DNA of 63,997 nucleotides, filler included, from Malassezia furfur (lineage: Eukaryota), in NCBI GenBank assembly GCA_052055015.1. It is 4 parts of 4 records of this genome, joined end to end, with 100 filler letters (N's around TTAATTAATTAA, not from the genome) between each part and the next. Parts side by side here need not be neighbours in the genome. Positions count along the whole stretch, not along the records: positions 1 to 16,197 come from JBQJIT010000253.1; positions 16,298 to 32,251 come from JBQJIT010000255.1; positions 32,352 to 48,300 come from JBQJIT010000256.1; positions 48,401 to 63,997 come from JBQJIT010000265.1. The stretch is one strand, 5' to 3'. Positions within the stretch are counted from its first letter, which is position 1. Each line of letters opens with the position of its first letter. This document shows, in pieces, positions 1 to 62,458 of this stretch. The notes beneath the pieces are model-generated. The model made no database searches. It worked only from the letters and a program-made list of their open reading frames with translations, and was not told the origin of the DNA. The position numbers and the translations under genes were made by a program.

Positions 1-837
1 GGCCGGCGCGCTCGGCGCGCTCGGCGGCGCCTGGGCGGACGGCGCAGCCGGCGCACTAGTGGCCGGCGCGTCCTCCGCGTCGTCCTCCGAGTACGACCCG
101 TACTCTTCGACGTCGCGCGTCACCGTGTAGCCCTTTTCGTTTTTCGTCTTGATCTTGCGCACGACCAGCCGCCGCTTGCGCCCGGGCTTGCTGGGGTGTG
201 GCTCGCCCTCGCGCTTGGTATCTACGCGTGCCGGTGCCGCGGCGGGTTTGGAGTCGTCTGTGGGCGGCGCGGCGGGTTTGGTGTCGTCCGCAGGCGGCTT
301 GGCAGGCTTCGTGTCCTTGGCGGGCGGGGGCCGACGCGGCGCGACGGCCGGCAGATCGCCCGACGGCGTATGTGCGTTTGTGATGGCGCCGAGGCGGCTG
401 GTGTCTGCCTGTACACGCGCGAGCATCTCGGCGTCGTGCAGCGTCTCGCGGTTGACCGACGCGAGGAGCGGCGCGTCGTACGACTTGTGGGCCTGCACGG
501 CATACAGGAGGCACTCGGGGGCCGTGTACTGTGCGCGTGCGTTGTCGAGCGCGTCGGAGCCCACGAGCTCGATCGTTTCGACGGTTGCGCCCGTATCCGC
601 GTCCTTGCGCTGGCCCCGCACGACATAGGTCGCGTACACCGACGCGTCGTCCTGGCGCGTCATCCAGTCGTGCATAGTGCTGTGTGAGCGCGTCAAGACG
701 TACGTGCGCGCGTCATCCAGAGCGATCCCACATGCCCGGCTGAGCAGCCGGCACGTCACCTGCGTGAGTGCTGCTCCACGTACCGCCTGCCGCTCGTGCA
801 GCACGCGCGCGACCAAGAACGCGCTGGGTGCCTGCAT
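1..837 (-). CDS. CDC27: DNA polymerase delta subunit 3 (Cdc27/POLD3/Pol32 family), 3' end runs off window
   Basis: Not in ORF track. Manual translation from ATG 837 with 24-nt introns 760-783 and 680-703 gives MQAPSAFLVARVLHERQAVTCRLLSRACG... and later RKRRLVVRKIKTKNEKGYTVTRDVEEYESYSE, typical of the N- and C-terminal motifs of the S. pombe-type Pol delta Cdc27 family (not APC/C CDC27). Confidence 0.8.
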   Translation of the reverse strand, partial: MQAPSAFLVARVLHERQAVRGAALTQVTCRLLSRACGIALDDARTYVLTRSHSTMHDWMTRQDDASVYATYVVRGQRKDADTGATVETIELVGSDALDNARAQYTAPECLLYAVQAHKSYDAPLLASVNRETLHDAEMLARVQADTSRLGAITNAHTPSGDLPAVAPRRPPPAKDTKPAKPPADDTKPAAPPTDDSKPAAAPARVDTKREGEPHPSKPGRKRRLVVRKIKTKNEKGYTVTRDVEEYGSYSEDDAEDAPATSAPAAPSAQAPPSAPSAPA

Positions 838-872
838 GATGGTGCGTCGAGGAAATAAGTTTTCGTCGCACC

Positions 873-2386
873 ATGAGCCAGACGGATGGGAAGAGTGCGT
901 GGGCACGACTGACGCAGCGGTAGAGTCGCTTTCGTCGCGACTCGGCGGAATTCTGTCCGACGCATTCAAAGAGGAAGACAGCGAGGACGAGCTGCCTGGC
1001 GGCCCCGTGCCGTCCAAGAAGCCCGAGGCGAAGCCCGCGCAGCCCGCGGCGGACGACGCGAAGAAGGACGCACAGAAGGACGCGCAGCCGGCTGCGGCGC
1101 CCGCGTCGGGCGCTCCGGCGGACAGCTCGTCGCTGCGTGAGTCGCAATACGATGTGCAGGTGACGCTTGCCGACCAGCAGGCGGACCCCAACTCGCCGCT
1201 GTACTCGGTCAAGTCGTTTGACGAGCTCGGCCTGCACGAAGACCTGCTCAAGGGCATCTACTCGATGAAGTTTACCAAGCCGTCCAAGATCCAGGAGCGT
1301 GCTTTGCCGCTGCTGCTGCAGAACCCGCCGCGGAACATGATCGGGCAGTCGCAGTCGGGCACAGGCAAGACGGCGGCGTTTGTGCTGACGATGCTCTCGC
1401 GTATCGACTTCAGCGTCGACAAGCCGCAGGCGATTGCGCTTGCGCCCTCGCGCGAACTTGCGCGCCAGATCATGGACGTTGTGCAGGCGATGGGCAAGTT
1501 TACGCCCGTCAAGACCGCGTTTGCGATCCCCGATGCGATCAAGCGCGGCGAAAAGGTGCAGGCGCACCTGGTCGTCGGCACGCCCGGCAAGACGTTTGAC
1601 CTGATCAAGACGCGTGCGCTCGACCCCTCGGCGGTCAAGGTGTTTGTGCTGGACGAGGCGGACAACATGCTCGACCAGCAGGGCCTCGGCGAGCAGAGTA
1701 TCCGCGTGAAGAACACCATGCCGCGCAGTTGCCAGATTGTGCTCTTCTCGGCGACATTCCCGGAGAACGTGCACAACTTTGCGGTCAAGTTTGCGCCGAA
1801 CGCGAACGAGATCCGGCTCAAGCAGGAGGAGCTGAGCGTGGAGAGCATCCGGCAGTTCTACATGGATTGCCGCTCGGAGGAGCACAAGTACGAAGTGCTT
1901 GTCGAGCTCTACAACCTGCTCACCATCGGCCAGAGCATCATCTTCTGTGCGCGTCGTGACACTGCGGACCGGATAGCGAAGCGGATGACCGACGAGGGGC
2001 ACCGTGTCGACTCGCTGCACGGCAAGCTGGACAACACGGAGCGTGACAAGACCATCGACAACTTCCGGTCCGGGCGCAGCAAGGTGCTGATTGCCACAAA
2101 CGTCATTGCGCGCGGCATCGATATCCAGCAAGTGACGCTCGTGATCAACTACGACATGCCCCTCACGCAAAAGGGCGAGCCGGACACGGAGACCTACCTG
2201 CACCGCATCGGGCGCACCGGGCGCTTTGGGCGCCGCGGCGTTTCGATCAACTTCGTGCACGATGCCGAGTCGAAGCGCCAGATGGAGACGATCGAAAAGG
2301 CGCTGCACTGCACCATGGTGCCCGTGCAGACCGACGACGTGGAGGCGATGGAGACGACCATCAAGGACGCGCTCAAGGCCGCATAG
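873..2386 (+). CDS. DBP5: DEAD-box RNA helicase Dbp5 (mRNA export)
   Basis: QSQSGTGKTAAF, DEAD, SAT, HRIGRTGRFG motifs and LADQQADPNSPLYSVKSF. Start ATG 873, 23-nt intron 895-917. Confidence 0.95.
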
Positions 2387-2426
2387 CATGCAGGATTAGA
2401 TAAGTCGTGTTTCGCTGCCCCCCGCC

Positions 2427-4786: not shown

Positions 4787-4858
4787 CGTGGAAGAAGACG
4801 GCACGTGATATGCCCCCGCCTCCGCTCGCACGCACGACCTCGGAGCCGGACGAGCCGG

Positions 4859-6827: not shown

Positions 6828-7104
6828 CTACTTGCTATCTTTCTGGGCCTCGGCGAGGAACTGCTTGATGAACGCGTCTTCCTCACTGTGTGAGCCTCGT
6901 GGTACGTACGCGTCCTGGCCGCCGAGCACCGCCGGAGCCGGCGCGGAGGCGGAAGCACCGGAGCTCTGCTTGTCCTTCGACCCGCCGCGCGTGGCCGCGT
7001 AGGCAGCAAGGCCGATCGCACTGTACGTGCCGAGCACAAGGTACTCGTTCAGGACTTTCACGCCTGCGTCAGCGCGCGCACGTACCGAAGATGTTGTAGG
7101 ACAT
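6828..7104 (-). CDS. ATP19: Mitochondrial ATP synthase subunit k (Atp19)
   Basis: MSYNIFGVKVLNEYLVLGT...EEDAFIKQFLAE; introns 7064-7085 (22 nt) and probably 6886-6909 (24 nt). Confidence 0.8.
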
Positions 7105-11438: not shown

Positions 11439-13295
11439 CTAGTGTCGTCGATGGCTGCTGGGTGTGTCGGGCGGTGCGTGCAACGTATTTGAGGTGCGTC
11501 GCGGAGAGGATACGTGAAAACCGGGCGAGCTGGGACTGATACCGATGCTGAGCCCGCGCTCGACCAGGATCCCGTACAGTGTGGGCCGGTGCATAGCATT
11601 GATGTGCGCACGGTCCGGGGAGCGGATGCCCTCGTTCAAGGCATGATCTAGCGATATCGTTGGGCGCTCAGTTCCGAATGGCAAGCTGACGCTGCGCCGT
11701 GGTCGTGGAAGCAAGTGTGGTGCAAGGGGTGCATTGCGAGCAATGTGCGGTGTGATGTGCGAGCTCCCAGAGGCCCGTGGTGATGCTCGCTCGGCTTCGA
11801 GCGCGCCCGAGTACATAGGACCCGCGAGCGGCGTAACAGCTGCGCCCTCGATGATGGCGTCGTGCTCGTGCCATGCTGCTGGGTCGTGCCAGCCAGGCCC
11901 CCAAAGCGTGGTATCCTCCTCTTCGCCCATCTCGTCGCCCTTGTAAGGGCTACGGTGCAGCGAAATGACCCACACACCACATAGCAGCAGTGCGGTGCCC
12001 ATACAAATGCACGCGACATCTGTCCACGAGAGCTGCTCGAGCTCGTTGAAGTACATCAGCCCGAGCGTGATTGATGAAATGTTGTAGAAGCAAAAGGCCA
12101 GCGGACACACCAGCACGGGATCAGCGAGTTTGAGGCTCTTGTTCAGGTACCACAGCTGAAGGAGCGCAGCGGCGAGCAGGATGCTGATAAGCATCCAGCT
12201 CAGTGGGCTGGAGAGCTGGTTGTTTCCACGCACGGTCAGGACAAGCAGATCGACGCCGCTCTTGGCCAACAACAGGCACACACCACTCAGTGTCCCGCTT
12301 GTTGCGCTGTAGGCCACCGCCAGCGCCAGTACGGTCGGCCGGTTTTCGGGAAGGGAGAATACGGACGGCATTGCAGGCTTTTGGGCGTCAGCCTCGACGT
12401 CGCGCAGGGGTGCGGCCGGCGTCGAATTGGCGCGTTTTAGGGGCGCTCGACGCTCGCGTGGGATCGCGCCGTAGGACGGCTGTCGTTCACTGGGCGACGC
12501 CGTGCGCGATGCGTCCGCAAGAGTGCCATGCATGCTTTTTCCCGCATTCAGGTCGGCTGCCAGGGTGTCGATAAGCAATTTCGTGCGTTCGGAGTTCAGC
12601 GCCGTGGCTGGATTCGGTGTCGCGATCCCTGACGAGTTTTCGCTGACCTCGGCGACGGTAGCGAGCGCCGGCGTAGACCGCCGCCGACGCGCCAGTGAGC
12701 GCCACCGGCGGCGCATTCTGCCGCGCTGTTGCTGGAGGTTGGGCTGCCACAGCAGCTGCCACTCGGTCAAATGGGCCATGGTCAAGATCGAGACAAACAC
12801 GAGCAGGTAGAGCATCGCGAATGCCACAAACGGTGGGCGCGTATATAGCTCGAGAAGCTCGTGCAGGGAGTGGGGCTCCTCGCCCACTGCACCAAAGTAC
12901 CCGATCAACACCGCGCCGACTGCAATCAACGACGAGCCTGGGTCAGTGCGCATGGCGTACCGAGCAACATGTGCTGCGACAAGAAGTCGTCGAGTAGCGC
13001 GCGCGCGAGCAATGCATTGTACAACAAGCTCACGGCGCCGAGCGGCGCCAGGATGACAATGGGCAGTGTCCCGATCTGGAAGATCGTCCCGCTGATGTTG
13101 GCCGCCAGAAACACGATGAACCCGGCGACCCACAAGGGGCGGTGCCATTCCGAGCGCCGCTCCTCTTCTGGAAGGCGCTCATTGTGCAGGTGAGAGCGCC
13201 GCTGGATGGTGAGGCCTACATTAGTGCAAGGACCTACCCAAGCTCTGTACGAAACTCGCCAGGAGCCCGAGGCCGACCGCCGTGGGCACGTCCAT
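11439..13295 (-). CDS. NIPA/DUF803-family magnesium transporter-like protein
   Basis: GLLASFVQSLGLTIQRRSH, RPLWVAGF, ILAPLGAVSLLYNA, LQLWYLNKSL, VCPLAFCFYN; introns 13216-13237 (22 nt) and 12938-12960 (23 nt). Confidence 0.9.
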
Positions 13296-16197: not shown

Positions 16198-16297
16198 NNN
16201 NNNNNNNNNNNNNNNNNNNNNNNNNNNNNNNNNNNNNNNNNTTAATTAATTAANNNNNNNNNNNNNNNNNNNNNNNNNNNNNNNNNNNNNNNNNNNN
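16198..16297. other. Artificial contig-join spacer (N44-TTAATTAATTAA-N44)
   Basis: Six-frame stop linker between N runs, identical at three sites. Confidence 0.98.
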
Positions 16298-18753: not shown

Positions 18754-20993
18754 ATGGCGAAGCAGCAGCGCACGCTCGAGTACGTGGGCCGCCGCACTGA
18801 CACAGCGCCTTGTTTGGCAAGCGCGACGAGCCGGCAGCGAAACGCACGCGCACCGAGGCCGATGCAGCTGCAGAGGCGGACGACGCCGACGACGACATCC
18901 CCGAGGCCGACGCGGCCGAAACCACGGCGCAGATCGTGCAGCAGAGCACCGCGGCTCCGAAGTCCGTGGGAAAGCGCGGCGCCCCAATCAAGTACGCAAC
19001 GCTCGTCGAGACCTTTGCCAAGGTCGAGGCGACGACGAAGCGCCTTGAAATTCTGCAGCTCGTCACGGACCTCTTTGTCCAGGTGATCGCCCACTGCCGC
19101 CAGGACAGCGTGGCCTCCGCAAGCGAGAACCTGCTGTACACCGTCTATCTATGCATCAACCGACTGTGCCCGGACTACGAGGGACTCGAGCTAGGGATCG
19201 GCGAGGGCCTCCTCGTCAAGGCGATCGCGCAGAGCACCGGGCGCGAAGTCGCACGCATCAAAAAGGACCTCGAGAAGCAGGGCGACTTGGGCCTGGTGGC
19301 ACTCGCCTCGCGCAAGCACCAGCCGACCATGTTCCAGGCGCAGACACTGACCGTCCCATCGGTGTTCAAGCAGCTCACTGAGATCGCCCGCGCGTCCGGC
19401 ACCAAGTCCCAGGACAAGAAGCTCGGCATCATCAAGCGACTGCTCGCTGCATGCACGGGCGACGAGAGCAAGTACCTTATCCGCAGCTTGGAGGGCAAGC
19501 TGCGCATTGGACTCGCCGAAAAGACGGTGCTGGTCGCCGTCGCCCATGCCGTGGTGCTGGCGTCGCTCAGCGACGAGGCGCACACGATGGACCGCGAAGA
19601 GCTCGCCGCCAAACTCGAGCACGACGCGAATGTCGTCAAGGCGGTGTTTAGTGAGCTGCCGTCGTACAACGTGCTTATCCCCGCGCTGCTCGAGCACGGC
19701 ATCGATGGCCTGCGCGAGCGCGTCAAGCTCACGCCGGGCATCCCGCTCAAGCCCATGCTCGCCAAGCCCACCAAGGAGATCGGCGAGGTGCTCGACCGAT
19801 TTGAGGACCGCACGTTTACGTGCGAGTACAAGTACGATGGCGAGCGCGCACAGGTGCATGGCTTCCGCGATGCGGCAGGCAAGCTGAGCGTGCGCGTCTT
19901 TTCGCGCAACTCGGAGGACATGAGCATGAAATACCCCGACTTGGTGGTGCAGGTCCCGCGGTGCCTCGGCGAGGGCGTGCAGAGTTTCGTGATCGACGCC
20001 GAAGCTGTCGCATGGCAGCCACTGCACGTCGCGCGCGCCGAGCGCCCGGACGCCAGCGTCGGGCGGCTGCTGCCCTTCCAGGAACTGAGCCGACGGAAGC
20101 GCAAGGACGTCAAGGCGGAGGACATCAAGGTGTTTGTGAAGTTGTTTGGCTTCGACCTGCTCTACCTGAACGGCGAGCCGCTGCTGCACCTCGCGCTGTC
20201 GGAGCGCCGCGCCAAGCTGATGGCGCATTTTGTGCCGGTTGCCGACGAGTTCGACTTTGCGACGCACCGCGACTGCCATACCACCGAAGAGATCCAGACC
20301 TTCCTCGACGAGAGCGTCGCGAGCGGCTGCGAGGGACTCATGGTCAAAATGCTCGATGGCGCCGACGCGACCTACGAGCCCAGCCGCCGCTCGATCAACT
20401 GGCTCAAGCTCAAAAAGGACTATTGTACGCCGTACGACTCACCCAGTGTCCGGCACCGGCGACAGCCTCGATCTAACTGTGATCGGCGGCTACTATGGCA
20501 AGGGCAAGCGCACCAACGTGTATGGCGCCTTTCTCCTCGCATGCTGTACGTTTTCCCGCACTGACGCAGACGATGAGGATTCGGAGACGTATCAGAGCAT
20601 CTGCAAAATCGGTACCGGTTTCTCCGAAGCGGATCTGGACGCACACTACACTACGCTCAAGGCGCTTGAGCTCACGCAGAAAAAGGGGTACTATGACGTG
20701 GGTGATGCCAAGCCTGATGTACGTGCACGCCGCTCATCCAGGTCTATTTCGCGCCGAAAATCGTCTGGGAGGTGCTCACGGCAGACCTGTCGCTGAGCCC
20801 GGTGTATACGGCGGCCAAGGGCCTCATCGATGCGCGCGGCATCTCGCTGCGCTTCCCGCGCTTCCTCCGCATCCGCGACGATAAGGCACCCGAGGAGTCG
20901 ACGGCGCCCGAGCAGATCGCCCATATGTACCGCGCCCAAGCCGTCGCGTCCAAGCGCCAGCGCGGACGTGACGACGAGGACGACTTCTGGTAG
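18754..20993 (+). CDS. CDC9: DNA ligase I
   Basis: PIP-like QRTLDALF, CEYKYDGERAQ, CEGLMVK, WLKLKKDYL, KIGTGFS, SLRFPRFLRIRDDK; introns 18780-18805, 20425-20446, 20546-20569, 20719-20741. Confidence 0.96.
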
Positions 20994-21013: not shown

Positions 21014-22649
21014 ATGGCCTGGCTCGCGCACGCCGCGAGCGAACTCAAGGGCGCCGCCGCGTACCTCGACACGCCCGCGATCCCCTGGAAGCAGCTCGTG
21101 ATTTGCCTGCTGTGGGGCGTCTACTTGTTCGAGACGTACGTCGCGGTGCGCCAGTTGCGCCTGTACGACAAAACGACGCCGCCCAAGGCGCTCGTACCCC
21201 ACGTGTCGCTTGACACCTTTGCCAAGAGCCAGGCGTACGGCCGCGACAAGGCGCGCTTTGCGCTCGTCTCCGACGCCATTGCGCACGCGTACAACCTCGC
21301 CGCAGTGTACTTCGATTTCTACGCGCTCGCGTGGGTGTGGGCGAGCGACCTGCTCGTGGCCGTCGGTGCGCCGACCAACGAGGTGACCAAATCGGCGATG
21401 TGGGTCGTTGTCAACTCGGCGATGCACGAGGTCGTCGGGATCCCGCTCAGCTTGTACCGCAACTTTGTCGTGGAGGAGCGCCACGGGTTCAACAAGCTCA
21501 CGCTCGCGACCTTTGTCAGCGACACCATCAAGGGGTGGGTCGTCGGCACCGCTGTCGGCGCACCGCTCGTGATGCTCGCCGTGTGGGTGATCCGCTGGGC
21601 GGGCGACTACTTCGTCGTGTACGTCATGCTGCTCTTCACGGTGGTCATCTTGTTCGGCAGCGTGCTCTACCCACTCGTCATCCAGCCGTTCTTTAACAAG
21701 CTCACGCCGCTCCCCGAGGGCGCCTTGCGTGACCGCGTCGTGGCACTCGCGAGTGCGCTGCGCTTCCCGCTCAAGCACCTGTACGTGATCGACGGAAGCA
21801 AGCGCAGCTCGCACTCGAATGCGTACTTTTACGGCATCGTGCCCGGCGGCGGCAAGCACATCGGTACGTTGTCCTCGCGCTGACCCAGTGATCTACGACA
21901 CGCTCATTGAAAAGTCGACCCCGGAAGAGATTGAGGCGGTGCTGGCGCACGAGCTCGGGCACTGGGCACACTCGGACCCGGTCAAGCTCGTGCTCATGTC
22001 GCAGCTCAACCTCGTGCTCATGCTCTCCCTGTTTACGCTGTTTATCCACAACGCTTCGCTGTATCGTGCGTTTGGCTTTGTGCAGCGCGCGGCGCCTGGC
22101 GCGCTGGTCGTCGAGCCGTATCTGCCCGTGATGGTTGGCCTCGAGCTGTTCCAGCTGGTGCTAAACCCCACCGATGCGCTGCTCCGCTTTGGTATCAACG
22201 CGGCCGTGCGCCGCATGGAGTACGCTGCGGACCGGTACGTGACCGTGTGCCTGACTCAGTTTTGCCGCCGAGCTTCCGCGCGCGCCCAGGACAGCCGCCG
22301 AGATCGAGGCGATGCGCCTGATCGAGGCCAAGGGCGGCGACAGTGACGACGTACAGCCGAGCGCGACGGTGGTAGATTGGGTCGACCGCCTGAGCGAGGT
22401 GCCTGCGCACCGCCTGCCCTCCGAAACGATTGGGGATGCGCTCCCCGAGGAACAAGAGCCGTACACGGAGCTCCTCAAGCGATCGCTCGTCAAGCTACAC
22501 ATCCACAAGTATGTCTTACGCCCCACTCACACAGCTTGTCGTCTATGTACCACGATCCCCTGTACAGCGCCTACCACCACTCCCACCCCACGCTCACCGA
22601 GCGGCTCGTGGCGCTCGACCGGGTGGCCTCCACCAAAAAGACGCATTAG
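21014..22649 (+). CDS. STE24: CAAX prenyl protease 1 (Ste24, M48 zinc metalloprotease)
   Basis: EERHGFNK, DGSKRSSHSNAYFYG, AVLAHELGHW, RRMEYAADRF, DPLYSAYHHSHPTLTERL; introns 21864-21888, 22235-22259, 22509-22534. Confidence 0.96.
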
Positions 22650-22712: not shown

Positions 22713-24138
22713 ATGCCGTGGAGCGAGACTTCGCAGGGGCGCGATGCCGCATCGTGGGCTACGCTGGTCGTGTTGATCGCATGCCTGGACTGGGCCATGA
22801 AGGTCGTCCTGCTCGTGCGGCAGCGGCGTCTTAGCCGGTCCAAGGCCGTGCCCGTCGTACTCACGTCCACCGTTACCCCGGACGAGTTCCGGTTCAGTGC
22901 CCAGCGCTTCCAGCGCATCTTTGCAGCGCAACTGGGGCACGCCAACCTCGTGCTGAACACCATCGTGTGCTCTTTGCAGTTCAATCTTCTACCGATCGCA
23001 TGGAACTGGGCGGGGCTGCTGGTCCGCCCCGATCAGCCACAGGCCGCTTTCCAGCAGAGCCTCGTGTGGCTCGCGTTGCTCCAGCTTCTGCGCTCCGTCC
23101 CGCGCACGCTTATGTACATCGACGAGTGCTGGCGTGTTGGCTTGGCGAGGCGGCCGTCGCTCGCTGCCTTCTTCCTTGATCGCACGACCGTAGCGGCGAT
23201 CTTGGTGCTAGGCGCCGTGCGCATCGTTGGGGCGACGCGGCTGGGCACATGGCCGCTGCAGTCGGGTACAATTGCCATGGCCGATGCGGTCGCCGCATGC
23301 GTGATCCCGACCGTTGCCTTCTTTTTGAACGTGCCGCTTGTGCCCTTGACACAAACCCGCGCGCCAACCGAAGCACCGATCGCCACATCTTCCCTCGACA
23401 GCGACGAAAAGCACCCGGTGCATCCCACCGAGCTCGTTCAGCTGACCACAGACGAGGCCGAGGCGATCCGCATGTACGAGCGCGGCAGCAAGACATCGAT
23501 GCTCGCACAGCGCACCGTCTTCGTACTCAACCTCGTGTTTACGGTGCTGTTTGTGCAGCTGGTCAACCACAACCCGCTGTTTCTGCGTGCGTTTGGATTT
23601 GGCGCAGCGGAGCAGGGCACACCCGCCGTGATCGATGCGCCGCCGCTCGTGGTCGGCAGTGCGCTGGCGACGCTCCTCCTGCGGCCGCTGCTGGTGGCCG
23701 CGAGGCTGCAGCTCAACTTCCTGTCGCGGCGCGCTGTGTGCGCACAGGATCGGTACGTATAGACTCGCTGACCCTAGTCACTTTGCCGTACGGTGTGCGC
23801 AGATGGTGCTGGAGGACGAGGTGGTGAATGACTGGGTCGACTACGAGGCGTCGAGTTTCGCGACCGGTGCGGACCTGAAAGCGTGCTTGGAGAATGCTCT
23901 GCTCAAGCTGTACCTAGCAGACGACGCGCCGCTGTTTGCTGACCCACTGTACAATGCGTATTTCCTATCCTATCCCTCCTTGGCCGAGCGCTTTGCCGCG
24001 CTTGGGTCGGTCTCAGAAGAGACGGGGCCATCTCGTGAAGAGCCTGCACCGGTTCGCTTCAACAAGGCCGAATTCGATCCGTATTTCGATGAATCGAGTG
24101 GCGATGTAGCGGTACCGTCCCTGTTGCTGCAGGCATAG
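22713..24138 (+). CDS. Divergent tandem Ste24 paralogue lacking catalytic residues (predicted pseudoprotease)
   Basis: Collinear similarity to the upstream STE24 along its length; HELGH replaced by YERGS; 25-nt intron 23753-23777 at the same codon position as STE24 intron 2. Confidence 0.8.
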
Positions 24139-26974: not shown

Positions 26975-27083
26975 CGACAAGAACAGGATTCGAACCTGTG
27001 CGGGCAGAGCCCATACGCTAACCACCGGAACCGGTGTCGAACTGAATTCGAGGCGTACCCGTTAACCGCTCCGGCACCTTGTC
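26975..27083 (-). tRNA. tRNA-Ser(CGA) with about 27-nt intron
   Basis: Acceptor GACAAGG/TCTTGTC, anticodon stem TACGC/GCGTA around CGA, long variable arm GGGCTCTGCCC, GGTTCGAATCC T-arm, downstream T-runs. Confidence 0.92.
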
Positions 27084-27172: not shown

Positions 27173-28217
27173 ATGCTCGAAACCTCGGACGACGCGCTCG
27201 TGCGCCTCGTGAAGCTCACATCCGATGTGCTTCCGTCTGCCAAGCAAGTGGCTCTAGTAGACGGGCGCCATGAAGGCATCTCTGTGGTACGTGTTTCGCT
27301 CATGCAAGGGACGTGATCGCTCATATACCCCACGTCTCCGCCTGCCGTCCATGGAAGTCAGCAAACACCACGCGCGCATTTTCGCCATCTATCGCAAGAA
27401 ACAGTTTGATCTGCCGCCAAATGTGTCGTTAACGGATACCGGATCCACGCACGGGACGTTTGTCTACCGCCCCGACACACCGAACCCGACACCGATGTCC
27501 CGCAGCCGCGTGCAGCAGATCCCAGAGGAGCTATTTTTGCGGCTCTCGCCTGAGAAGCACGCGAGTCGTCCCTTCGATCTGCAGCATCTGGATGTGATCC
27601 GTTTTGGGGTACAGAGCAACGTATTCGAAGTGCATATGCACGGCAATGCGTGGGCGAGCTGCTCTGCGTGCCAGCTGTCCCCCGACGGTGCGAACGAAAT
27701 TTCGCTCGCGCCACAGGCACGTACCACCGCGCAGGATGCGTCGAAGAAAGTTCCGGCAGGCGCGCAGCAGGCACGCAAGACGCAAAGCGAGAAGCGCAAG
27801 GCGCACCACGAGACGAAGCAGCACCTGCGCGAACTCAAGAAGGTGTATCTGAAGCCTGTTGCGCGTGGTCCTGCGTCTGTGGATGAGCGGCCGCTGTACC
27901 GTGATCGTGCCTCGGCGCGCCGCGATTTGCACCCCGATGCACCGCCCCCCGTGCCCCGCATCGGCCCATCGGAGCTGCGGACGGAGCCGCTGGTCTCGGC
28001 AGAACCAGCGCCGCTCGATGCCTCCAACGTCGGCTACCAGCTGCTGGCTAAAATGGCAGAGGGTGCCGAGCATATACCCCAGCAAGACCCCATCGCCCCC
28101 CGTGTGGGAGCCCAGCGTGCCGGGCTGGGCAGCGGCGCCCTGGTCGAGCCGACCGAGCGCCTTTCGTACCAAGCGCACGCCAAGGCGAGCACACAGCAGC
28201 GTTACAATGCATTGTAG
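27173..28217 (+). CDS. FHA + G-patch domain protein (AGGF1-like)
   Basis: After a 22-nt intron (27287-27308): ISVGRDR...EVSKHHA...DTGSTHGTF (FHA); YRDRASARR; NVGYQLLAKM...RAGLG (G-patch-like). Confidence 0.75.
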
Positions 28218-29364
28218 CTAGATGACAAATACCTGTGTACGACGCAAGCCGCCTGTCGGTCCCGCCGTCCTGCGCCCCGTCTCGAGCAAACGGCGGTCGC
28301 GTTGCAGCTGCGCAAACGCCTCGCGAATGTGCCAGGCCTCGAGCGGCGGCTCGGCGCTAGGGGGCAGGCTGAACAAGGTGCATGCGGCCTCTTCGGGATT
28401 CTCATCCGCGGCGCCCTCGTCCTTAGCATCGGTATGCTCAAACGTGCGCTGGGTACGTGCCTGCACCCCCTGCGCACGTTCCTCCCATTCGCGCTTGATA
28501 CGCATCGCCGAGGTGCACAGTTCGTGGACCACCTCGAATGCGAGGAACCCCAGAATATCGATCGTGTCATCGCTCGGCTTGACATCCAGGTAGTGACTCG
28601 AGTGAATAAACTCGCGGAAGCGTTTCGCTGGGTAAGCTAAGTCACGTACCCTTGCGGAACGTGAACGATGCCTGCCGACATTCAGAGTAGAAGACGTACT
28701 CCTCGCGCGTCATGCGCCGCGTGGTCTCGTCGGCAGCCTTGAGGCGGCGTAGGCTGTCTTCGTTGGTCTCAATGGTATCTTCGTCCTCGTCTTCGGCCTC
28801 GTCGCCCATTCCTGGGTTCGCAACGAGCGGGTATTCAAAAAACAGGGCAGAAAGCTCCCAGGGGAGCTTGAGTTTGCGCTTGTTGGTGCGGAGGGGCCCG
28901 TCGACGGCGGTGTCCTCGATGCCCTCTCCCGCACCTCCCCCCGCGGCGGGCCCGGCACCGCCATCACCGCCCGAGTCTTTGGCGTTCTTGCGCACATCCT
29001 TCCAGCTCAGGTACGTGCGCAGCCGATTGACCTTGGCGCGATCGTACCGGATCAAGAAAATCAGGTCCTCTGGCATGAGGTATTTGGAGGAGCGCCGCAT
29101 CGCGAGCCAGCGCGACTGAATGATCTGCGTCAGCGGTGGGTGCACGCACCATCTCGATCACCTGGTTGCGCACGATGTCTTCGATCAGTCGGGTGACTTG
29201 TGGGTCCGGATTCTCGACCTCCGTCGAGACAAACATCTGGGTGAGCACGCAGGGCGTACCATCTGTGCAATCTCCTGCTGATACTTGTATCCTGTCCCGC
29301 CATCGATCGCCTCGGCGGGCCCGGCCGCGCGCGCGCCGGCGTCGATCGCCTCGGCGCCCTCCAT
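28218..29364 (-). CDS. SPT3: SAGA complex subunit Spt3
   Basis: YQQEIAQMMFV, EDLIFLIRYDRAKVNRLRTYLSWKDVRK, YSECRQASFTFRKAKRFREF, DILGFLAFE; introns of 23, 25 and 22 nt. Confidence 0.93.
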
Positions 29365-29413: not shown

Positions 29414-30999
29414 ATGGCATCCGAGACGATGGAGGCGGCAAACGTAGGTGCGCCGAACGACCCCAGCGTGGTGCTTGCGCGTGAGCCCGCATGGGCGTCA
29501 CCACCGTCTTATTTCCCACAATTCCACGAGAGCGGTGATGAGGTGCGTGGACGACACTCACGCAGTATACCCGTCTGTACGGTAGGTGCAGCCACTGATG
29601 CAGCCGAGCTCGCCAGCCTGGGCGACGTGCCCGCACAGCAGGAGACAAACAAACGTGCACTATGGAAAGTCTCGGGCTCCATTGAGACGTCGTCCGCCGT
29701 GCTGAGGCGTGCACAAGATGCTGCGTGCGTTGCCTCCACTGACGCAGGACGAAGCGGCAAGCCGCGTTGGACAAAGCGACCCGGACCGTGCTCGCGCGCC
29801 TCGCGCCTGCGCTCCAGCGGCGCTCGCAGCGCATGCAGGCCCTCGAGGCCGAGCGAATGGCTGCAGTGCAGGCGCGCGATGCGGCGCAGGCCAAGGCAGA
29901 CGCCGACGTCGCGCGCCAGGCGGAGCTGGAGCGCACGCGCGACGCGCTTGTGGGCGCGCGTGTGCGCTATGATACACTGCGTACGCAGCTGCAGACGCTT
30001 GGCGCGCGCCTCTTCCCGCCCGAGACGGTGAGTGTGTTTCCGGTGCTGGAGACGCTGCAGTGGGAGGGCGAGGTGCAGACGGCCTTGTACCGGCTGATCC
30101 CCACCGAGATCGACCGCGAGCGGCGCGCGCGCCAGGCGCTCAAGCTCGCAGACAAGCACCTCCAAGAATGCTTCAAGCTCATTCGCACGATCCTGCAGCT
30201 CGGCATGAAGATGGGTGTGCCACAGAACAACAAGCACCACCAGCAGCTCTTTTCTGGTTCGGCGCTGGCGTACGCCAATCAGAGCATGCCGCACCTGCTG
30301 AGCTGCAAATCGAGTCTCGGCGAGTTTCATACATGCATTGCGCGGGCACGCATACGCCAAAAGATGGTGCATCGCGCGCCGACGTTTGAACTGGTGGACC
30401 TCTCGAAGCTGCCCGGGCGACGCCGCGCCGGCACGATGGACGAGATGACTATGTACGCAAAAATGGAGACGTCGTACGCGCAGTGCCAGTTCTGCCGCAC
30501 CTATATCACCAAAGAGATCCGCACGTCGCTCGCGCGCGAAAAAGCGATGCAGGAGCGGCTGGGCACGATGGGTGCGGCTATCGAAGCGGCGGCCGTCGAC
30601 GTGCGCGCGGCGCAAAATACCATTCTGACCAGCTATACACGAGGCCTTCCTGAGACGCACGCTGCACTTGAAAAGCAGTTTGGTGAGCGCGTGGCGGCGA
30701 TCCGATCGAGCATGCACACGGCGCTCGCGCGCGATGCGGCCGACGCCGAGGCGGAGGCCAAGGCCGAGGAGGCGCACGAGACGGACGCCGGATCGACGCG
30801 CGCGTCGACGCTCCCGCCGTATGGAACGAGCGAGGTAGTGAGCGTGCTGACCCATGCGCCTGTGCCGGGCATGTCGCCGCAGCTGTACGCGACGACGCGT
30901 GCGCTGCTGCACGCGCTGCTCGCCGAGATCGACGCCCAGACGCGTGTGGAGGACACCGAGGAGGACCTGCCGTGGCACCCCGGCGCGCTCGGTTGGTAA
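29414..30999 (+). CDS. Hypothetical helical/coiled-coil protein
   Basis: ORFs joined by introns 29543-29565, 29582-29603 and 29725-29747; no family recognised. Confidence 0.65.
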
Positions 31000-32251: not shown

Positions 32252-32351
32252 NNNNNNNNNNNNNNNNNNNNNNNNNNNNNNNNNNNNNNNNNNNNTTAAT
32301 TAATTAANNNNNNNNNNNNNNNNNNNNNNNNNNNNNNNNNNNNNNNNNNNN
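32252..32351. other. Artificial contig-join spacer
   Basis: N44-TTAATTAATTAA-N44. Confidence 0.98.
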
Positions 32352-39647: not shown

Positions 39648-40843
39648 ATGACGGAAGAGCAACCGAGCGGTGCGTGAAGAAGCTCACACCTAGTCAACGA
39701 GAACCCCGGCGACATCAAGAAGACGATCTCAATCGCCATTCTTTTGTGTGGCAACCCGTCCGAGTCGACGGTGAGCAAGTTTGGGTCGTATGACATCATG
39801 TTCCGCAATGTCTTTACCGAGGCCCTGGCTACGATTCCTCGCTACGAATGGCACCCGAAGATCTCGCTGTACCTGCGCTCCTTCAATGTTGTCCTGGGCG
39901 AATTCCCAGAAGTGAGCGAGTTGGACGACGGTGTCTGGGACGCTGTGCTGGTGACGGGCACACGTACGTTTCCCCCGTCCAAGCTGACGCACAGCCGAGT
40001 CCTGCACGCAGGAGAATGTACTATGGATGGATGTGCTGCGCAAATACCTCGTTCATGTCACGACCGTGCACCCACTGGTGCGCGTCATTGGCATCTGTTT
40101 CGGGCACCAGCTGATTGCCCAGGCCTTCGGCTCCCAGGTGGTCCAAGATAAGGCCAAGGCCGAGGTACGTTTCCGGCGCCCACTGACCTGCAGCTTGGCG
40201 TCTTGCCGTTCGACTTGACACCTGAGGGCACAAAATTACTTAGCCCATTCGACCAGAAAACGACCTGGGTACGTATGCCTTATCCGTCCATGCGAGAAAT
40301 CCTATTGGTGGAACGCATTTGTGAGAATGGCGTGTCACCCATCGGACGTGTTTCTCGCGTAGACGTCACTGAACCTGTACTGACACCGCCCGCCAGCGCT
40401 TGGAGCAACTGCATGAGGATGCGGTAATGGATATGCCGCAGCCGGTCGACGGCGACGCATGGGAGCTCGTGGGCTCGTCCGAGAAGGCGAAAATCCAGGG
40501 ACTCGCACTGCGTTATCCTACGGAGGCGCCGCCGCTACCGTCGGCCGTGAAGACGTCGTCGTACATTGCCTTTGACGTGGACGACAGTACCACCAGCGCG
40601 TCTGGACCGCTGCCCATCCGGAACCTGCATGTGATTACGCTGCAGGGTCATCCCGAGTTTAACACCGCGGTCACCGAGAACGAGCTGACCGCCCTCCACA
40701 ATGGTCAGGTGCTCGACGAGGCGACGTTTGCCGGTGCGTTTGGCCGTGCCAGTGAGGAACAGGATGGGCTGGAAACGGCACGCATGTTGTTGGCAATGTT
40801 GGGCGTCGAGCCCGCCTTGGCGCAAGAGGAGATAGTCCTTTAG
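39648..40843 (+). CDS. Class I glutamine amidotransferase-like protein
   Basis: VLVTG, VIGICFGHQLIAQAFG (Cys nucleophile), QGHPEF; four introns, the last 128 nt (40269-40396). Confidence 0.85.
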
Positions 40844-41378
40844 AAGCCTGGGGTACCATGTGAATGCAGGAACGCGCATCGGCGTAGTGGACACATGTGC
40901 AATATATTAGATATTGTGCGTCTGACGTGCAGGGCTTGGCGTGGACGCGCTGTACCCTCATGCAGGAAATATGTGCAGGGTCGCAAGGAATCTCCGCACC
41001 GCGCCCCCTCGGCGTGCGCCGGCGCTGGTGCAGCTTTCAGGAGGCGCGCGCGTGCGTATCCCTGCGCATCCGACCCAAAATTCGGCAATCGCGACTTTCA
41101 TCCAGTCTTAAACCAACCGTCACACCATTTGGATCGGCCATCCGTTCCTCAACCTTCAACAACAAGTCGCAATCGCATTCGAAGCCCTTACGCTCCTTCG
41201 GTCTGTGAGAGCTGGCGAGCATTTTGGACGATCGTGACGAAGGAGTCAGACTTCCAATATGTACGTCCTTGCGCCCGCCGTATCCACGCGGTGGCTCAAC
41301 ATTCCTTTTAATGCGCTTCGCGGCGAGCGATGGCCTTCGCCGTCGACGTTGACGCAAGCGATCGATTCGTCGTACATC

Positions 41379-43327: not shown

Positions 43328-43409
43328 TGCGCCAAGGGGGAATCGAACCCCCGGCACAGCTACATCTTTGCGATGGCAAAGCTGTATTTTACCACTAAAC
43401 CATTGGCGC
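43328..43409 (-). tRNA. tRNA-Gly(GCC) with 11-nt intron
   Basis: GCGCCAA/TTGGCGC acceptor, GTTTAGTGGTAAAAT D-arm, CAGCT/AGCTG stem around GCC, GGGGGTTCGATTCCCCC T-arm, T-run terminator. Confidence 0.93.
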
Positions 43410-46093: not shown

Positions 46094-47059
46094 CCGTGCT
46101 CTACGCGCCAGATGCCCCACCAGTTGCCCTTGTCCCAGCCGCTGGCGACTTGCGGAACTGCGAGCCGCACAGGCTTGGCATCCTCGCCTGCGCCCTGGGC
46201 GAGATCTCGCACCGCCCAGGCCACGAGGCTCTCGAGCTCGCCTTCGCGGAACAAATGGTAGTCTAGATGAGCGCATTCTTCTGTACCCACATCGCTGGTG
46301 CACCTGCTCCTCGCGCGTCTCGGGCGCGTGTTGCGATGTCATGACCCACGGCACCAAGACGTCCTGCGCGGCCTGGTCGTCGGGCAGCACCGTGTCAAAC
46401 TGGCGGCGTCCCCCGCCGCGCTGCTCGTAGGCCCAGACAAAGATGAGGAACCGGCCCGGTCCATCACCGAGCCCATCACTGCACGGCGCTTTGTGGGGTA
46501 CGGGACGCACCAGGCGGATCATTTCCTGCACGGCGCGCATGCGGCGCTCGGGCGTCGAGAAGTGATGAATGGTCGCGATACTGATCGCGTAATCCTGAAA
46601 TGAGCCGCGCACGTACAAATGCCGCCGAGCGCAGCTGCGAGTGCAGCGCATCGGCGACCGCAACCTCGTGCATAGACCTCGAGCCGGGCTGCGGAAAGTT
46701 GTGCTGCGCATCCTCGACGAGCGGCGCACACCGATCCGAACCCAGGGTGACGAGGGAAGCGTCGGGGCCCGGACCGAACGCCGAGCGCAAATGCAGGTAC
46801 TTGCCGTTTCCGCACCCCAAATCTGCGCCGAGGCTCCCTGGCGCGAGCGTCGCGAGGAACTGGGGAATGAGCGGCCAGGGCTGCGTCAGTGCCGCGCGTG
46901 CCTACCTTGTACCGCGTGCTGGAAAAATGCGGGGCGATTACGTCGTACACGCTTAGTGAGCAACATCACGTACGCATGCACGTTGGCCTGTTCGTACGCC
47001 GCGGCATCGCCGGTCTCGCACCGCTCTGCGCGATGCACAGGCTGCGACGCACGAGCCAT
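46090..47059 (-). CDS. TRM9: tRNA wobble-uridine (mcm5U34) methyltransferase Trm9
   Basis: [67 protein letters not shown]; introns 46952-46973, 46881-46905, 46595-46616, 46263-46290. Confidence 0.93.
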
Positions 47060-48300: not shown

Positions 48301-48400
48301 NNNNNNNNNNNNNNNNNNNNNNNNNNNNNNNNNNNNNNNNNNNNTTAATTAATTAANNNNNNNNNNNNNNNNNNNNNNNNNNNNNNNNNNNNNNNNNNNN
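48301..48400. other. Artificial contig-join spacer
   Basis: N44-TTAATTAATTAA-N44. Confidence 0.98.
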
Positions 48401-53694: not shown

Positions 53695-54274
53695 TTACAC
53701 GCTGATCGGCTTGATTTTGAAGTTGAGCGAAATAAGGCTGAACACGAGGCACTGGTGTGAGCTGCGCGACGCCCAACCTACCTTGAGATCCTGGACCAGA
53801 TAGTACATGACGCGTAGCCCTTCGGGGTCGTCGCTCTCCTGCACCTCGACGAGCGATCCGATTTTGGACGTCTGTGTGAGATGGGTATGCGCACCTCGAA
53901 CGAGATATGTTCCTTTCCAAGGCGAACCTCGAGCTCTTGGCGGCCGACGACGTTCTTTTTGGGCCAGCGTGCGTCGTCTTCTCTGCCGGTTAGTTGCCGC
54001 GACGCACTTGATAATCTCGCTTTCTTCCACAATCCTCCGTAGCTCCTGTGCCATTAAAGGACTGATCCACACTGTGGTTAGGGGCGCGTCACCTACTTTC
54101 TTTCCGAATGAGGCTGTCGTTGCGGTAGTTGCTGTTGTTGGCGTAACGCAGCCGCCCGCGGCTGTATTCGAACTCGAGAAATTCATGGCCGTGCCGGCCC
54201 TGATGGCCCGTACTGTATGAGCATGCCTGCACACAAGCACCACCTTACTAGTACCGCACGTAAAAATCCGACAT
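53695..54274 (-). CDS. MAGO: Exon junction complex protein mago nashi
   Basis: Splicing five introns gives [24 protein letters not shown]...[18 protein letters not shown]...EDDARWP...GRQELEV...TSKIGSL...[32 protein letters not shown]. Confidence 0.93.
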
Positions 54275-56150: not shown

Positions 56151-56179
56151 TACCCTCTCGTAGTAAATGTATTTATGGA

Positions 56180-57346
56180 CTACTCCTTTTCGGTATGCGG
56201 TGCGTCATCGGCGGCAGGCGCCGAGTCGGATGTGTCAGTGGGCGTCTTGCACGCTGCATCGGCGGCCGCGGGCGTGTTCCATGGGCCTGCATCACTCGTC
56301 TCACACGGGCGCATCGCCGAGTCGGACGTGTCGCAGCACTCGCACTTGCCGCCCAAGTGCTTGGGCCAGGCTTCCATGTCGACATAGCTCGCGACCTTGG
56401 GCAGGTAGTCGGAGCCGGCAATGTCGATTTTTGAGGCGGTTTGCGCAGGGAGCCACCCCTTGATATAGGACCACACGGTTGTGAATAGGTAGGGCGCATT
56501 GATGATCTGTACGCGCCCAGACAGCTCGGGGAAGTTGTCGTCTAGGATACTGAGCAGCTGCTGCAGCTGGCCCTTCATCGACCAGAACGTGCCCAGCCCA
56601 AGGCCAGCAACGTTGAGCACCATGTAGTTGTCGTCCACGAGGTGCCCCTGCTTCTCAGTGCACGCATGGTACTTGTACCGCACCGCATGCTCCAGCGTCA
56701 CGGCAAAATTGAGCACAATGCGATCGGGGGTGGTATGCGTGAACACCTTGTCGGGTTCCAGGTTGGAGAGGTCTTGGATAAAGATGGGGCGGCCAAGCCG
56801 GTCCGTTTTGTGGAAGTACATGCGCCAGCCGTGCTTGGCGACCACATCCCGCTCCTCAAACTCAAACTCCTCATATAGCTTGTCGAGCTCAATCGACTCT
56901 TTCCATTTTTCGGCATTGGCATACATATCCCGCGCGGCATTCACGTCAAAGTTGCGTGCACGCAGGAAGCGCAGCAGCTGGGGATACTGGTGGGGCGGCG
57001 GGTTCTCCAAACTGATAAGGTTGGCGTCCGCCAGCGCCTTTTCGAGCTCGTGGAAGGCACGGTGCTGCTCCTCGCTGAGGTTTCCGGGGTGGCCCGAGGC
57101 AGGGACCTGCGTCAGTGCGTCACGTACAAATGCGTCAGGTTCTGGACTCGGCCTCGGTGACCGGTCCGCCGAATTCTTGTTCTTCCGGCCCTCCGCGGGG
57201 ACCGTCAGGGACTGGGCGGACCCCGAGCTGCTGGCACCTGACCCAAAGATATTCGACACACTTCTGCGCGGTTTGTTGCTCACCGCCGGTGCGTCTGGAT
57301 CGGGTACGGCAGAGTTCTGGCGCGAGCGGCTCTTGAAGGGCGGCAT
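56180..57346 (-). CDS. Sec14-type phosphatidylinositol transfer protein
   Basis: GHPGNLS, LLRFLRARNFDV, YFHKTDRLGRP, NFPELSGRVQIINAPYLF, PKHLGG. Confidence 0.9.
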   Translation of the reverse strand: MPPFKSRSRQNSAVPDPDAPAVSNKPRRSVSNIFGSGASSSGSAQSLTVPAEGRKNKNSADRSPRPSPEPDAFVRDALTQVPASGHPGNLSEEQHRAFHELEKALADANLISLENPPPHQYPQLLRFLRARNFDVNAARDMYANAEKWKESIELDKLYEEFEFEERDVVAKHGWRMYFHKTDRLGRPIFIQDLSNLEPDKVFTHTTPDRIVLNFAVTLEHAVRYKYHACTEKQGHLVDDNYMVLNVAGLGLGTFWSMKGQLQQLLSILDDNFPELSGRVQIINAPYLFTTVWSYIKGWLPAQTASKIDIAGSDYLPKVASYVDMEAWPKHLGGKCECCDTSDSAMRPCETSDAGPWNTPAAADAACKTPTDTSDSAPAADDAPHTEKE

Positions 57347-58743: not shown

Positions 58744-58767
58744 TGCTATTGCTGTAGAATACTATAC

Positions 58768-60591: not shown

Positions 60592-60709
60592 TCTTCCAGC
60601 AACAGGTTGAAGAAGCAAACCGTGCGGCTTCGCTTCGCTCCGCCGCCCCCCGGACCGCTCACGTGACGAGCACGGCCGAGCGTGCGTGCGCGTCGTCACC
60701 CAAATCGCC

Positions 60710-61012
60710 ATGGCGGACGAACAGACGGTGCCAAAGCCGGAAGCGCCTGAGCAACTCAACATCAAGGTCAAGGATGCCGATGGCAACGAGGTGTTCTTCA
60801 AGGTGAAGCGCACCACGAAGCTTTCGAAGCTGAAGCGCGCCTACGCGGAGCGGATGGGCAAGCCCGAGAACAGCGTCCGGTTCATCTTCGACGGCCAGCG
60901 CATTGGCGACGACGACACGGCCGACTCGGTACGTGCATGCACTCTGACGCAGCTTGACATGAACGACCAAGACGAGATCGATGCGATGATCGAGCAGCTG
61001 GGTGGTTGGTAG
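60710..61012 (+). CDS. SMT3: SUMO
   Basis: LNIKVKD..GNEVFFKVKRTT, RFIFDGQRI, EQLGG-W*; in-frame 24-nt intron 60929-60952. Confidence 0.96.
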   Translation: MADEQTVPKPEAPEQLNIKVKDADGNEVFFKVKRTTKLSKLKRAYAERMGKPENSVRFIFDGQRIGDDDTADSVRACTLTQLDMNDQDEIDAMIEQLGGW

Positions 61013-61013
61013 T

Positions 61014-62127
61014 CTACAAAATTTGGTCCAGGACACGGTCCATCTGTGGATCCGCGGCGGCCGAAGGTGTGCGCTGCGCCGCGCGTTGGTCGCGCACGTC
61101 GCGGTACACGGGGGCACGCTGCTGGAATTCGAAAGTGGACGACGCCGGCTCCTGCGGCAGCCCACGCTTCGCGCGCTTCGCCTCCTTGTCGCGCTGGATG
61201 CGCGAGCGCTCGACTTTGCGCAGGTAGTCGCGCTGCTCGTGCGCCGACTGCGCCAGCTCCATGCGCAGACGCGCAGCGTGTGCGGCACGCTCGTGTGCTG
61301 GGTGAGTGTGGCAGAAACGTACACATTTGCTCGATGAGCATCGGCCACCGGAACCCTTTCAGGTACTTCATCGTCCAGATGTCGTCTTTCCACCGGTTTG
61401 CCACGCGCGAGCCGGTTTGCGACCGGCGCGAGGAGTGTGCACTCGCGCCGAGCGACCCGATCGGCTGGGCGTTCATCATCTCGGCGGCCGTCTTGGCGAC
61501 CCGCTTGGACAGATACTCGACCCAGCCCTCGGAAAAGTTGGCCGTAGTCCGCTTACGCTTCTGTGCACCTTTGGGCTCCTTGTCCTTGGGCTGCAGGTAG
61601 ATGCGACCCACTTCGCCAAACTGCGAAAAGATGTGTCGCACCTTGGCCGGCGTCATGCCGGGCGGGATGCGGCTCACGTAGACAATCCCGCGCTTCTGCT
61701 GCTTGTTTGCGTACTCTTTCAGCGATTCCGGCGTGAGCACGCGCTGGCGAGCATGCTCGCTGTCGTGCAGGTCGTGTGCGTCGTCGTCGCTCGCGCCCGC
61801 CCTATCCTGCTCTTGGTCGCTGGCCGCACCTTGGTCGCTACCAGCATCATCGTAGGCGTCTTCGGGTGCGTCGTCATCGTCCGTCATGGCATCATCCTCA
61901 TGCGCGTCGTCGTTCGCCGATGCGTCGCCGTCCTCCGAAGCACTGCCGTCATCGGCGTCGCTTTCGAGTTGCTCCTCGACCTCGCTCGGCTCCTCCTCCG
62001 GGGTAACCTCGCGCTTCGCGCGCTTTTTCTTTCCCGAGCTCTCTGTCTTGCGCGACGATGCGCGCTTCGGCTCGTCCCACTTGGACAGGTCGAACCGCGC
62101 GTCGCGCACAGGCGCAGGTCGGACCAT
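61014..62127 (-). CDS. ESF2: Pre-rRNA processing protein Esf2/ABT1
   Basis: Acidic N-terminus, [33 protein letters not shown]; one short intron near 61298-61322. Confidence 0.92.
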
Positions 62128-62181
62128 CAAAAAAAGAAAGGTACCTCCACGTGGAAAAAAATTGGTTGCCACTCGACCACA

Positions 62182-62458
62182 ATGCCGCTGTCGTTCTACG
62201 ATGAAATCGAGCTCGAGGACATGGAGTTCGACGAGGCGAAGCAGGTCTTCCACTACCCGTGTCCGTGTGGTGACCGCTTCGAGATCACACCCGCGCAGCT
62301 GCGGGACGAGGAGGACATTGCACGGTGTCCCAGCTGCACTCTGATCATCCGCGTGATCTATGATCCGGTACGTCTGCGTCGCGCTGACCCAGCTCGATCT
62401 GCTCGATGATGACGCTGCGCCGCCTGCGGCCGCGCCCAGCATCGCCGCTTCGGCGTGA
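62182..62458 (+). CDS. DPH3: Diphthamide biosynthesis protein Dph3/Kti11 (CSL zinc finger)
   Basis: [34 protein letters not shown]; 25-nt intron 62368-62392. Confidence 0.95.

Follow-up and report, generated by a model that had tools for sequence, protein, structure and literature searches.

We analyzed a stretch of Malassezia furfur DNA of 63,997 nucleotides (nt), hereafter the window, which joins four draft contigs of 16,197, 15,954, 15,949 and 15,597 nt in order of decreasing length, has a guanine-plus-cytosine (GC) content of 64% and carries, among others, genes for ATP19, a NIPA magnesium transporter, DNA ligase I, an FHA-domain protein, SPT3, TRM9, a SEC14/CRAL-TRIO protein and mago nashi. 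One exon translation is 100% identical to M. furfur KAI3620549.1, and other genes in the window are 86–98% identical to M. brasiliensis or M. furfur-like records. Our subject is the very short GT-AG introns that interrupt these genes, which we assembled into one curated set:

680..62392, both strands: about 56 short GT-AG introns, from gene model, curation and shuffle enrichment

Gene models were built by splice-aware dynamic programming on the codon log-odds of each frame against the other five, with a flat intron-length prior of 10–80 nt and a minimum intron score. Candidates of 46–80 nt lying within long open frames were left out of the curated table as probably spurious by a filter on score and length. 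We disregarded a merge of an antisense SMC frame with the ligase gene, and the model's choices of 70 nt (NIPA), 75 + 61 nt (FHA), 79 nt (at 40165) and 60 nt (mago nashi) were rejected by Pfam or sequence. Length counts below cover 56 introns, whereas counts of signal anatomy cover 55, the 36-nt mago nashi intron being excluded from the latter.

The introns form a narrow class, with a median of 25 nt, a mean of 26.9 nt and a mode of 25 nt, and 42 of the 56 measure 22–28 nt (one of 21 nt, eight of 22, five of 23, seven of 24, twelve of 25, five of 26, one of 27, four of 28 and thirteen of 29–48 nt). We scanned both strands for a loose motif (GTNNGT, then YTNAY, then the next AG) and took expectations from block shuffles, finding 46 matches of 22–28 nt against about 11 expected and 7 matches of 14–21 nt against about 7.7 expected. 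A position-weight model that scores the three signals but not length, with a threshold of at least 20 bits, gave 36 matches at 22–28 nt against 0.87 expected, 1 at 21 nt against 0.13 and 1 at 12–20 nt against 0.73; its overall enrichment is partly circular because the model was trained on this window, but the contrast between lengths is not. All 55 curated introns and the 36-nt mago nashi intron begin with GT and end with AG on the coding strand, which holds by construction and is independent evidence only for the eight 22-nt sites described below. We count about 27 junctions at which the spliced product runs colinear with homologues, a PDB chain or a Pfam profile. Among introns of 33 nt or less, 11 have a length divisible by three (3n), 25 are 3n+1 and 13 are 3n+2, a small sample in which the peaks at 22, 25 and 28 nt are a confounder; 10 of the 13 3n introns of any length are open in frame. 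If retained, open 3n introns would add in-frame residues, as with the 24 nt at 60929–60952 in the SUMO gene.

Eight introns of exactly 22 nt had been named in advance by the original prediction, made from the sequence alone. All eight have GT and AG ends on the predicted strand, and each carries a CTNAY box. They are listed with one micro-exon, their anatomy being given as 5' hexamer, spacer length, branch box, gap length and acceptor:

7064..7085, minus strand: ATP19 (ATP synthase subunit k) intron, GTACGT-7-CTGAC-1-CAG, after a 19-nt first coding exon
13216..13237, minus strand: NIPA magnesium-transporter intron, GTAGGT-7-CTAAT-1-TAG
20425..20446, plus strand: DNA ligase I intron, GTACGC-7-CTCAC-1-CAG
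27287..27308, plus strand: FHA-domain gene intron, GTACGT-6-CTCAT-2-AAG
28628..28649, minus strand: SPT3 intron, GTACGT-7-CTTAC-1-CAG
29566..29581, plus strand: 16-nt micro-exon encoding YTRLY, flanked by introns of 23 nt and 22 nt
29582..29603, plus strand: middle of three mini-introns (29543–29565, 23 nt; 29582–29603, 22 nt; 29725–29747, 23 nt)
46595..46616, minus strand: TRM9 intron, GTACGT-6-CTCAT-2-CAG
46952..46973, minus strand: TRM9 intron, GTACGT-7-CTCAC-1-AAG

For ATP19, the match to Pfam profile positions 10–48 starts with the first residue of the next exon (E 5e-05, which is below the curated cut-off), so that about nine profile positions remain for the seven residues supplied upstream; a comparison of ATP19 with PDB gave no usable match. 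The NIPA profile, scanned in a stop-to-stop frame, begins at position 21 with base 13213, right after the acceptor, and for the first 20 profile positions exon 1 has 19 codons and one split codon. In the ligase gene, the upstream exon ends in NWLKLKKDY at the equivalent of residue 489 of human LIG1 (chain 9bs3_A) and residues 2–31 of the downstream exon match residues 492–521, with the split codon and residue 1 filling 490–491. Exon 1 of the FHA gene is an open frame of 38 codons from the ATG at 27173 to the donor, and the first codon past the acceptor is profile position 4. The upstream exons of NIPA and ATP19 are likewise clean and have an ATG. The spliced SPT3 model, FTFRK/AKRFREF across the junction (slash), is gap-free against 10 of 11 aligned homologues, including those of Agaricus, Trametes and the Ustilago group.

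The remaining three sites lie in genes with several introns. At all three junctions, the model containing the mini-introns follows M. brasiliensis WFC95005.1 (P0408, 500 aa) colinearly, nearly residue for residue, and the five residues of the micro-exon are identical in that protein; for 29582–29603, this M. brasiliensis gene model is the one source of support beyond the motif, and codon scores around the site are positive in the model frame only. Here, 61 nt hold two whole introns and the micro-exon. At TRM9 46595–46616, position 61 of the Methyltransf_11 profile ends the upstream exon and position 62 starts the next, with weak E-values of 0.035 and 0.23, and relatives called as open reading frames (ORFs) read through this site as "VR...". 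At 46952–46973, the spliced model is colinear with the full-length homologues P0251, P0254, P0266 and P0282. The four-intron TRM9 model as a whole keeps its colinearity with full-length homologues across each junction, and ORF-called relatives are garbled exactly there.

To define the anatomy of these introns, we tabulated the signals of the 55. The 5' hexamer is GTACGT in 31, GTGCGT in 7, GTATGT in 5, GTAGGT in 5 and another in 7, agreeing with the extended U2-type GTRNGT consensus. A CTNAY box is present in 54 (CTGAC 23, CTCAC 12, CTAAC 7, CTTAC 4, CTCAT 4), with its A lying 5–8 nt from the 3' end in 49; we infer that this box is the branch site and its A the branch point. The acceptor (CAG 43, TAG 9, AAG 2, GAG 1) is the first AG past the box, at a gap of 1 nt in 29 introns, 2 nt in 9 and 3 nt in 10 (1–3 nt in 48 of 55), and the introns have no pyrimidine tract. 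Spacers between hexamer and box begin at 6 nt (three introns) and run through 7 nt (eight), 8 nt (eight), 9 nt (ten) and 10 nt (nine) before falling off. Two spacers below 6 nt are artefacts, one from a mis-picked branch in 22509–22534, where a CTCAC sits 1 nt ahead of the CAG, and the other from a doubtful candidate with a GAG acceptor. In the shortest introns the putative branch A thus stands at position 16–17 from the 5' end.

Most of the original prediction is therefore upheld: ultra-short, spliceosomal-type GT-AG introns do occur throughout the window, by length (42 of 56 at 22–28 nt), motif enrichment and colinear spliced products; the eight 22-nt introns have correct signals without exception, and all have support from Pfam, a PDB chain or homologues; the layout it described (5' hexamer, branch box, short gap, YAG or AAG, no polypyrimidine tract) matches the counts over 55 introns; and its distance of about 16 nt from 5' splice site to branch agrees with a branch A at 16–17. 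The part that fails is its statement that there are none shorter than 22 nt, and with it a hard floor at that length, given the following intron and a matching case of read-through in SPT3:

57107..57127, minus strand: SEC14/CRAL-TRIO gene intron, the shortest in the window, GTACGT-6-CTGAC-1-CAG (GTACGT gacgca CTGAC g CAG)

At 24.9 bits, this 21-nt candidate has the top model score in the window. It is 3n, stop-free and inside a continuous open frame, so a search for frame breaks is blind to it. The seven residues that it would encode, VRDALTQ, are exactly absent from the annotated orthologues of M. brasiliensis (P0002) and M. yamatoensis (P0004). Within M. furfur, WFD47876.1 (P0395, 381 aa) lacks them and KAI3628743.1 (388 aa), of the same 90% cluster, keeps them, so three orthologous or allelic gene models omit the segment. 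Between the two M. furfur alleles, 2 of 7 intron codons differ, compared with about 4 of 123 flanking residues, and GT..G.. and CTGAC.CAG are kept. V[RC]..LTQ, into which GT.(C/T)G. ... CTGAC.CAG translates, is retained by ORF-called SEC14-like relatives, and the SEC14-like protein of M. psittaci has an 8-residue version ending in ITQ. A second case of the same length comes from the SPT3 relative P0121 (ORF-called, 90% identical), which carries a 7-residue insert, GMLIFNP, inside FTFRK/AKRFREF; to judge from its position and length, this insert is what read-through of a phase-1 intron of 21 nt would give.

Below 21 nt, motif scans of the window returned nothing credible, most of the short matches being nested in real introns or antisense to genes. 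An 18-nt candidate at 33161–33178 was rejected, having CTTTT in place of a branch box and lying antisense to a stronger gene. Between two plus-strand genes, at 40916–40932 (plus strand), there is a 17-nt GTGCGT-CTGAC-gtg-CAG of 21.8 bits with no spacer between hexamer and box, which could be an intron of an untranslated region or chance (0.17 expected at that length).

Taken together, the signals and junctions very probably mark ordinary major-type (U2-dependent) GT-AG introns in a miniature form typical of the genus, with a lower edge that comes from two minimum distances. Each intron consists of little beyond a 5' hexamer GT[AG]NGT, a branch pentamer CTNAY and a YAG acceptor 1–3 nt on. We propose, only as a hypothesis drawn from 56 introns and one that may be absent from print, that two distances limit how short such an intron can be. 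At least 6 nt would separate the 5' hexamer from the pentamer, which keeps the branch A from falling before position 16, and the pentamer would be set off from YAG by 1 nt or more, which leaves the A no closer than 5 nt to the 3' end. Adding 16 and 5 gives 21 nt and would set the lower bound at the corner of two limits, not at a fixed total length. The 5' site helix and the U2-branch helix would presumably need a few unpaired nucleotides between them on one short loop. The counts are consistent with such a corner: the class with spacer 6 and tail 1 has one member against 1.6 expected if spacer and tail are independent, and the 22-nt class is made up of six introns with (7,1) and two with (6,2). 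As a concrete statement of a fungal minimum intron length, the two-distance rule is open to direct testing.

Scanning metagenomes, we obtained 11 loci, three of which (L001–L003) are GC-rich and Malassezia-like. The Malassezia-like contigs have the same 22–25-nt architecture. SPT3 has introns of 25 and 24 nt at L002:4727–5849 and at L003:881–2003, and a single 23-nt intron with an AAG acceptor in L001; none of the three has an intron at the position of the window's 22-nt SPT3 intron. Intron presence varies between relatives.

Several points weigh against this account. All 11 ORF-called copies spanning 57107–57127 read through it, as does KAI3628743.1, and the segment may be retained in some or all transcripts; among the 14 members of the cluster there is no spliced SEC14-like copy derived from complementary DNA, the sole 381-aa form being an annotated NCBI record. 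About half of the 56 introns are supported by motif and codon-frame scoring alone, and the position-weight and codon models were both trained on the window itself. Doubtful members are 32928–32963, 40269–40296, 895–923 and the choice between 23 and 41 nt at 12938/12920–12960. With 56 introns, a physical limit cannot be proved from the fact that no spacer is as short as 5 nt. Were introns truly piled up at 22 nt, that class would be in excess, and eight are seen against 4.7 expected under independence, a mild excess that is not significant. This last point would suit a hard floor at exactly 22 nt, with 57107–57127 left unspliced and translated as seven extra residues, as would the open frame of the segment, its retention in the read-through copies and its place in a poorly conserved N-terminal region. 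We nevertheless find such a floor improbable: the segment has a perfect GTACGT/CTGAC/CAG consensus where only 0.13 such 21-nt matches were expected, exactly its seven codons are missing from WFD47876.1 and from the orthologues of M. brasiliensis and M. yamatoensis, its splice signals are conserved where its interior varies, and P0121 shows a 21-nt read-through insert within an SPT3 junction that is otherwise gap-free. That the frame breaks are sequencing or assembly errors could be entertained for a window made of short draft contigs, and its probability is close to nil, as every break coincides with a full set of GT, branch box and AG on the coding strand, the strong motifs number 36 against 0.87 expected, and the same positions hold introns or read-through inserts in other Malassezia genomes. 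We infer from these patterns that the introns are spliced out.

Two further alternatives concern which splice sites are used and by what machinery. Longer introns at some of the eight sites (70 nt for NIPA, 75 nt for FHA and one intron of 205 nt at 29543–29747) were favored in part by the gene model, in which codon score ranked the 70-nt and 75-nt options higher, and the start of KAI3620549.1 (P0241), M+RTKRQ, fits the ATG at 29538 joined to 29748, implying the 205-nt intron. They are nonetheless very unlikely, in that the longer NIPA and FHA options would remove profile-matching residues, the frame of FHA exon 1 stays cleanly open as far as the donor, both small exons within 29543–29747 are matched nearly identically by the M. 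brasiliensis protein, and each short acceptor is the AG that first follows the branch. The other alternative, raised in the original prediction, is that a branch A only 16–17 nt from the 5' site bars canonical simultaneous binding of U1 and U2, pointing to an adapted spliceosome in which early-complex factors are changed or lost. The geometry on which it rests is real, and without a pyrimidine tract there is nothing for U2AF65-type recognition to bind. Classical experiments in yeast and mammals gave far larger minimal distances from 5' site to branch. In Stentor, which has introns of 15–16 nt, avoidance of a steric clash through altered branching factors has been conjectured, while all small nuclear RNAs (snRNAs) and most proteins of the spliceosome are conserved (PMC9505925). 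We consider an adapted machine doubtful here: the window holds no snRNA gene (an Rfam scan gave two matches, both tRNAs) and nothing else that bears on the machinery, and lineages with equally short or shorter introns are described as keeping complete, functional spliceosomes (PMC13644364; PMC9505925). Because the 15–16-nt introns of Stentor use a largely conserved spliceosome (PMC9505925), shortness alone does not require a special machine. More speculatively, Malassezia might splice at a sharp geometric limit (an A at least 16 nt from the 5' site and at least 5 from the 3' end, a 21-nt minimum, no pyrimidine tract, micro-exons down to 16 nt between two such introns), which would require lineage-specific changes in the early spliceosome, in the contacts of U1, SF1, U2AF or SF3b, a reading that we think improbable. 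If it were true, this transformable yeast would be the first fungus to offer a genetically tractable system for studying how minimal introns are spliced.

Further junctions support the preferred reading, ordinary U2-type introns in miniature. Translating the exons one by one and scanning them against Pfam, we found the following continuations of profiles across introns:

Ribosomal L32e, 32-nt intron: profile position 72, then 75
Ribosomal L13, 27-nt intron: profile position 59, then 70, with 10 residues between
Peptidase M48, 25-nt intron: profile position 47, then 51
EFG_C, 25-nt intron: profile position 60, then 62
TFIID-18kDa (SPT3), 25-nt intron: profile position 39, then 42
Ligase C-terminal domain, 23-nt intron: profile position 49 plus 11 residues, then 61
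PNP, 26-nt intron: profile position 121, then 137
53752..54248, minus strand: mago nashi region with five introns, 54213–54248 (36 nt), 54072–54096 (25), 53983–54007 (25), 53872–53894 (23) and 53752–53781 (30)

Mago nashi has five introns, as originally predicted, and they measure 36, 25, 25, 23 and 30 nt. Exon by exon, the Mago_nashi profile runs 11–45, a 20-residue exon in the place of 46–67, 68–96 and 97–126. The N-terminus upstream of these, with its 36-nt intron, was read directly from the sequence and, we assume, resembles that of animal Mago.

These introns have consequences for annotation. Public Malassezia records annotate tiny introns inconsistently, above all those of 21, 24 or 27 nt that are in frame, and ORF-called TRM9 and SPT3 relatives are garbled at intron sites. 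Public M. furfur gene models at 29414–30999 (plus strand) and 56183–57346 (minus strand) conflict with each other and with homology; KAI3620549.1 skips the region of the three mini-introns and has about 80 N-terminal residues fewer than WFC95005.1.

Other features of the window were noted in passing. The contigs are joined by an artificial spacer of 44 N + TTAATTAATTAA + 44 N at 16198–16297, 32252–32351 and 48301–48400. Because an SMC gene is split between them, with its N-terminal part and hinge at the left end of contig 2 (16298–18591, minus strand) and its C-terminal part at the left end of contig 4 (48402–49445, plus strand), these two ends probably abut in the genome. Adjacent genes at 21014–22649 and 22797–24138 (both plus strand) match the N-terminal domain of CAAX prenyl protease (E 1e-55 and about 1e-3), and the second may be a diverged tandem copy. 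Two tRNA genes, at 26975–27083 and 43328–43409 (both minus strand), have insertions in the anticodon loop: one has a long variable arm, is apparently Ser(CGA) and carries about 23–26 extra nt that are not of the GT-AG type, and the other has a 13-nt insertion and an anticodon that ARAGORN calls as undetermined. ARAGORN misses the first of the two genes. The final 60 bases at the right end of contig 3 (48241–48300) look like the T-arm and acceptor end of a minus-strand tRNA, truncated where the contig stops; Rfam gave no match there.

Very short introns are already known in Malassezia, and the phenomenon is ordinary for the genus. A 2020 review mentions them in Malassezia genes (PMC7426719), a re-annotation of M. 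restricta worked with a minimum intron length of 20 and then of 15 (PMC6473144), and a 2023 annotation of several Malassezia species was guided by M. sympodialis proteins and by RNA sequencing (RNA-seq) where available (PMC10410736). A 2026 survey of introns below 30 bp treats ciliates, Microsporidia, Dicyemida and Myxozoa, with Microsporidia as the fungal exception (PMC13644364); because the word Malassezia has no occurrence in that survey, the genus appears under-recognized as an example of short introns. In our literature searches, no paper turned up that treats the branch sites, minimum intron length or spliceosome composition of Malassezia, and 10.1101/2021.03.19.436190 makes no mention of the Malassezia splicing machinery.

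The closest comparison is M. sympodialis, of the same genus and with the same phenomenon, where the curated annotation of strain ATCC 42132 by Zhu et al. (2017) reports 5350 introns that average 30 bp, with RNA-seq support for 99% of them (PMC5389616); in the window the mean is 26.9 and the median 25. The relevant passages and the supplement text of that paper state no minimum length, branch-site layout or distance rule (PMC5389616). For M. furfur itself, the public model WFD47876.1 already embodies the 21-nt intron. In Paramecium, 3n introns without stops are depleted. No such depletion is evident in the window, where 10 of 13 3n introns are open, albeit in a small sample. Bigelowiella natans nucleomorph introns, at 18–21 nt, form a similarly narrow class near 20 nt, but in the relic nucleus of an endosymbiont. 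Ciliates likewise have introns of narrow length that are mostly splice signals, of about 25 bp in Paramecium and 15–16 nt in Stentor (PMC5014332; PMC9505925; PMC13644364); theirs are AT-rich and reach shorter lengths, whereas those of Malassezia lie in DNA of 64% GC and have a strong CTNAY box. Myxozoans, dicyemids and microsporidia, which belong to other kingdoms or lineages than Malassezia, are described as having shrunk their introns independently to medians of about 22–26 bp in compact or parasitic genomes while keeping the spliceosome (PMC13644364).

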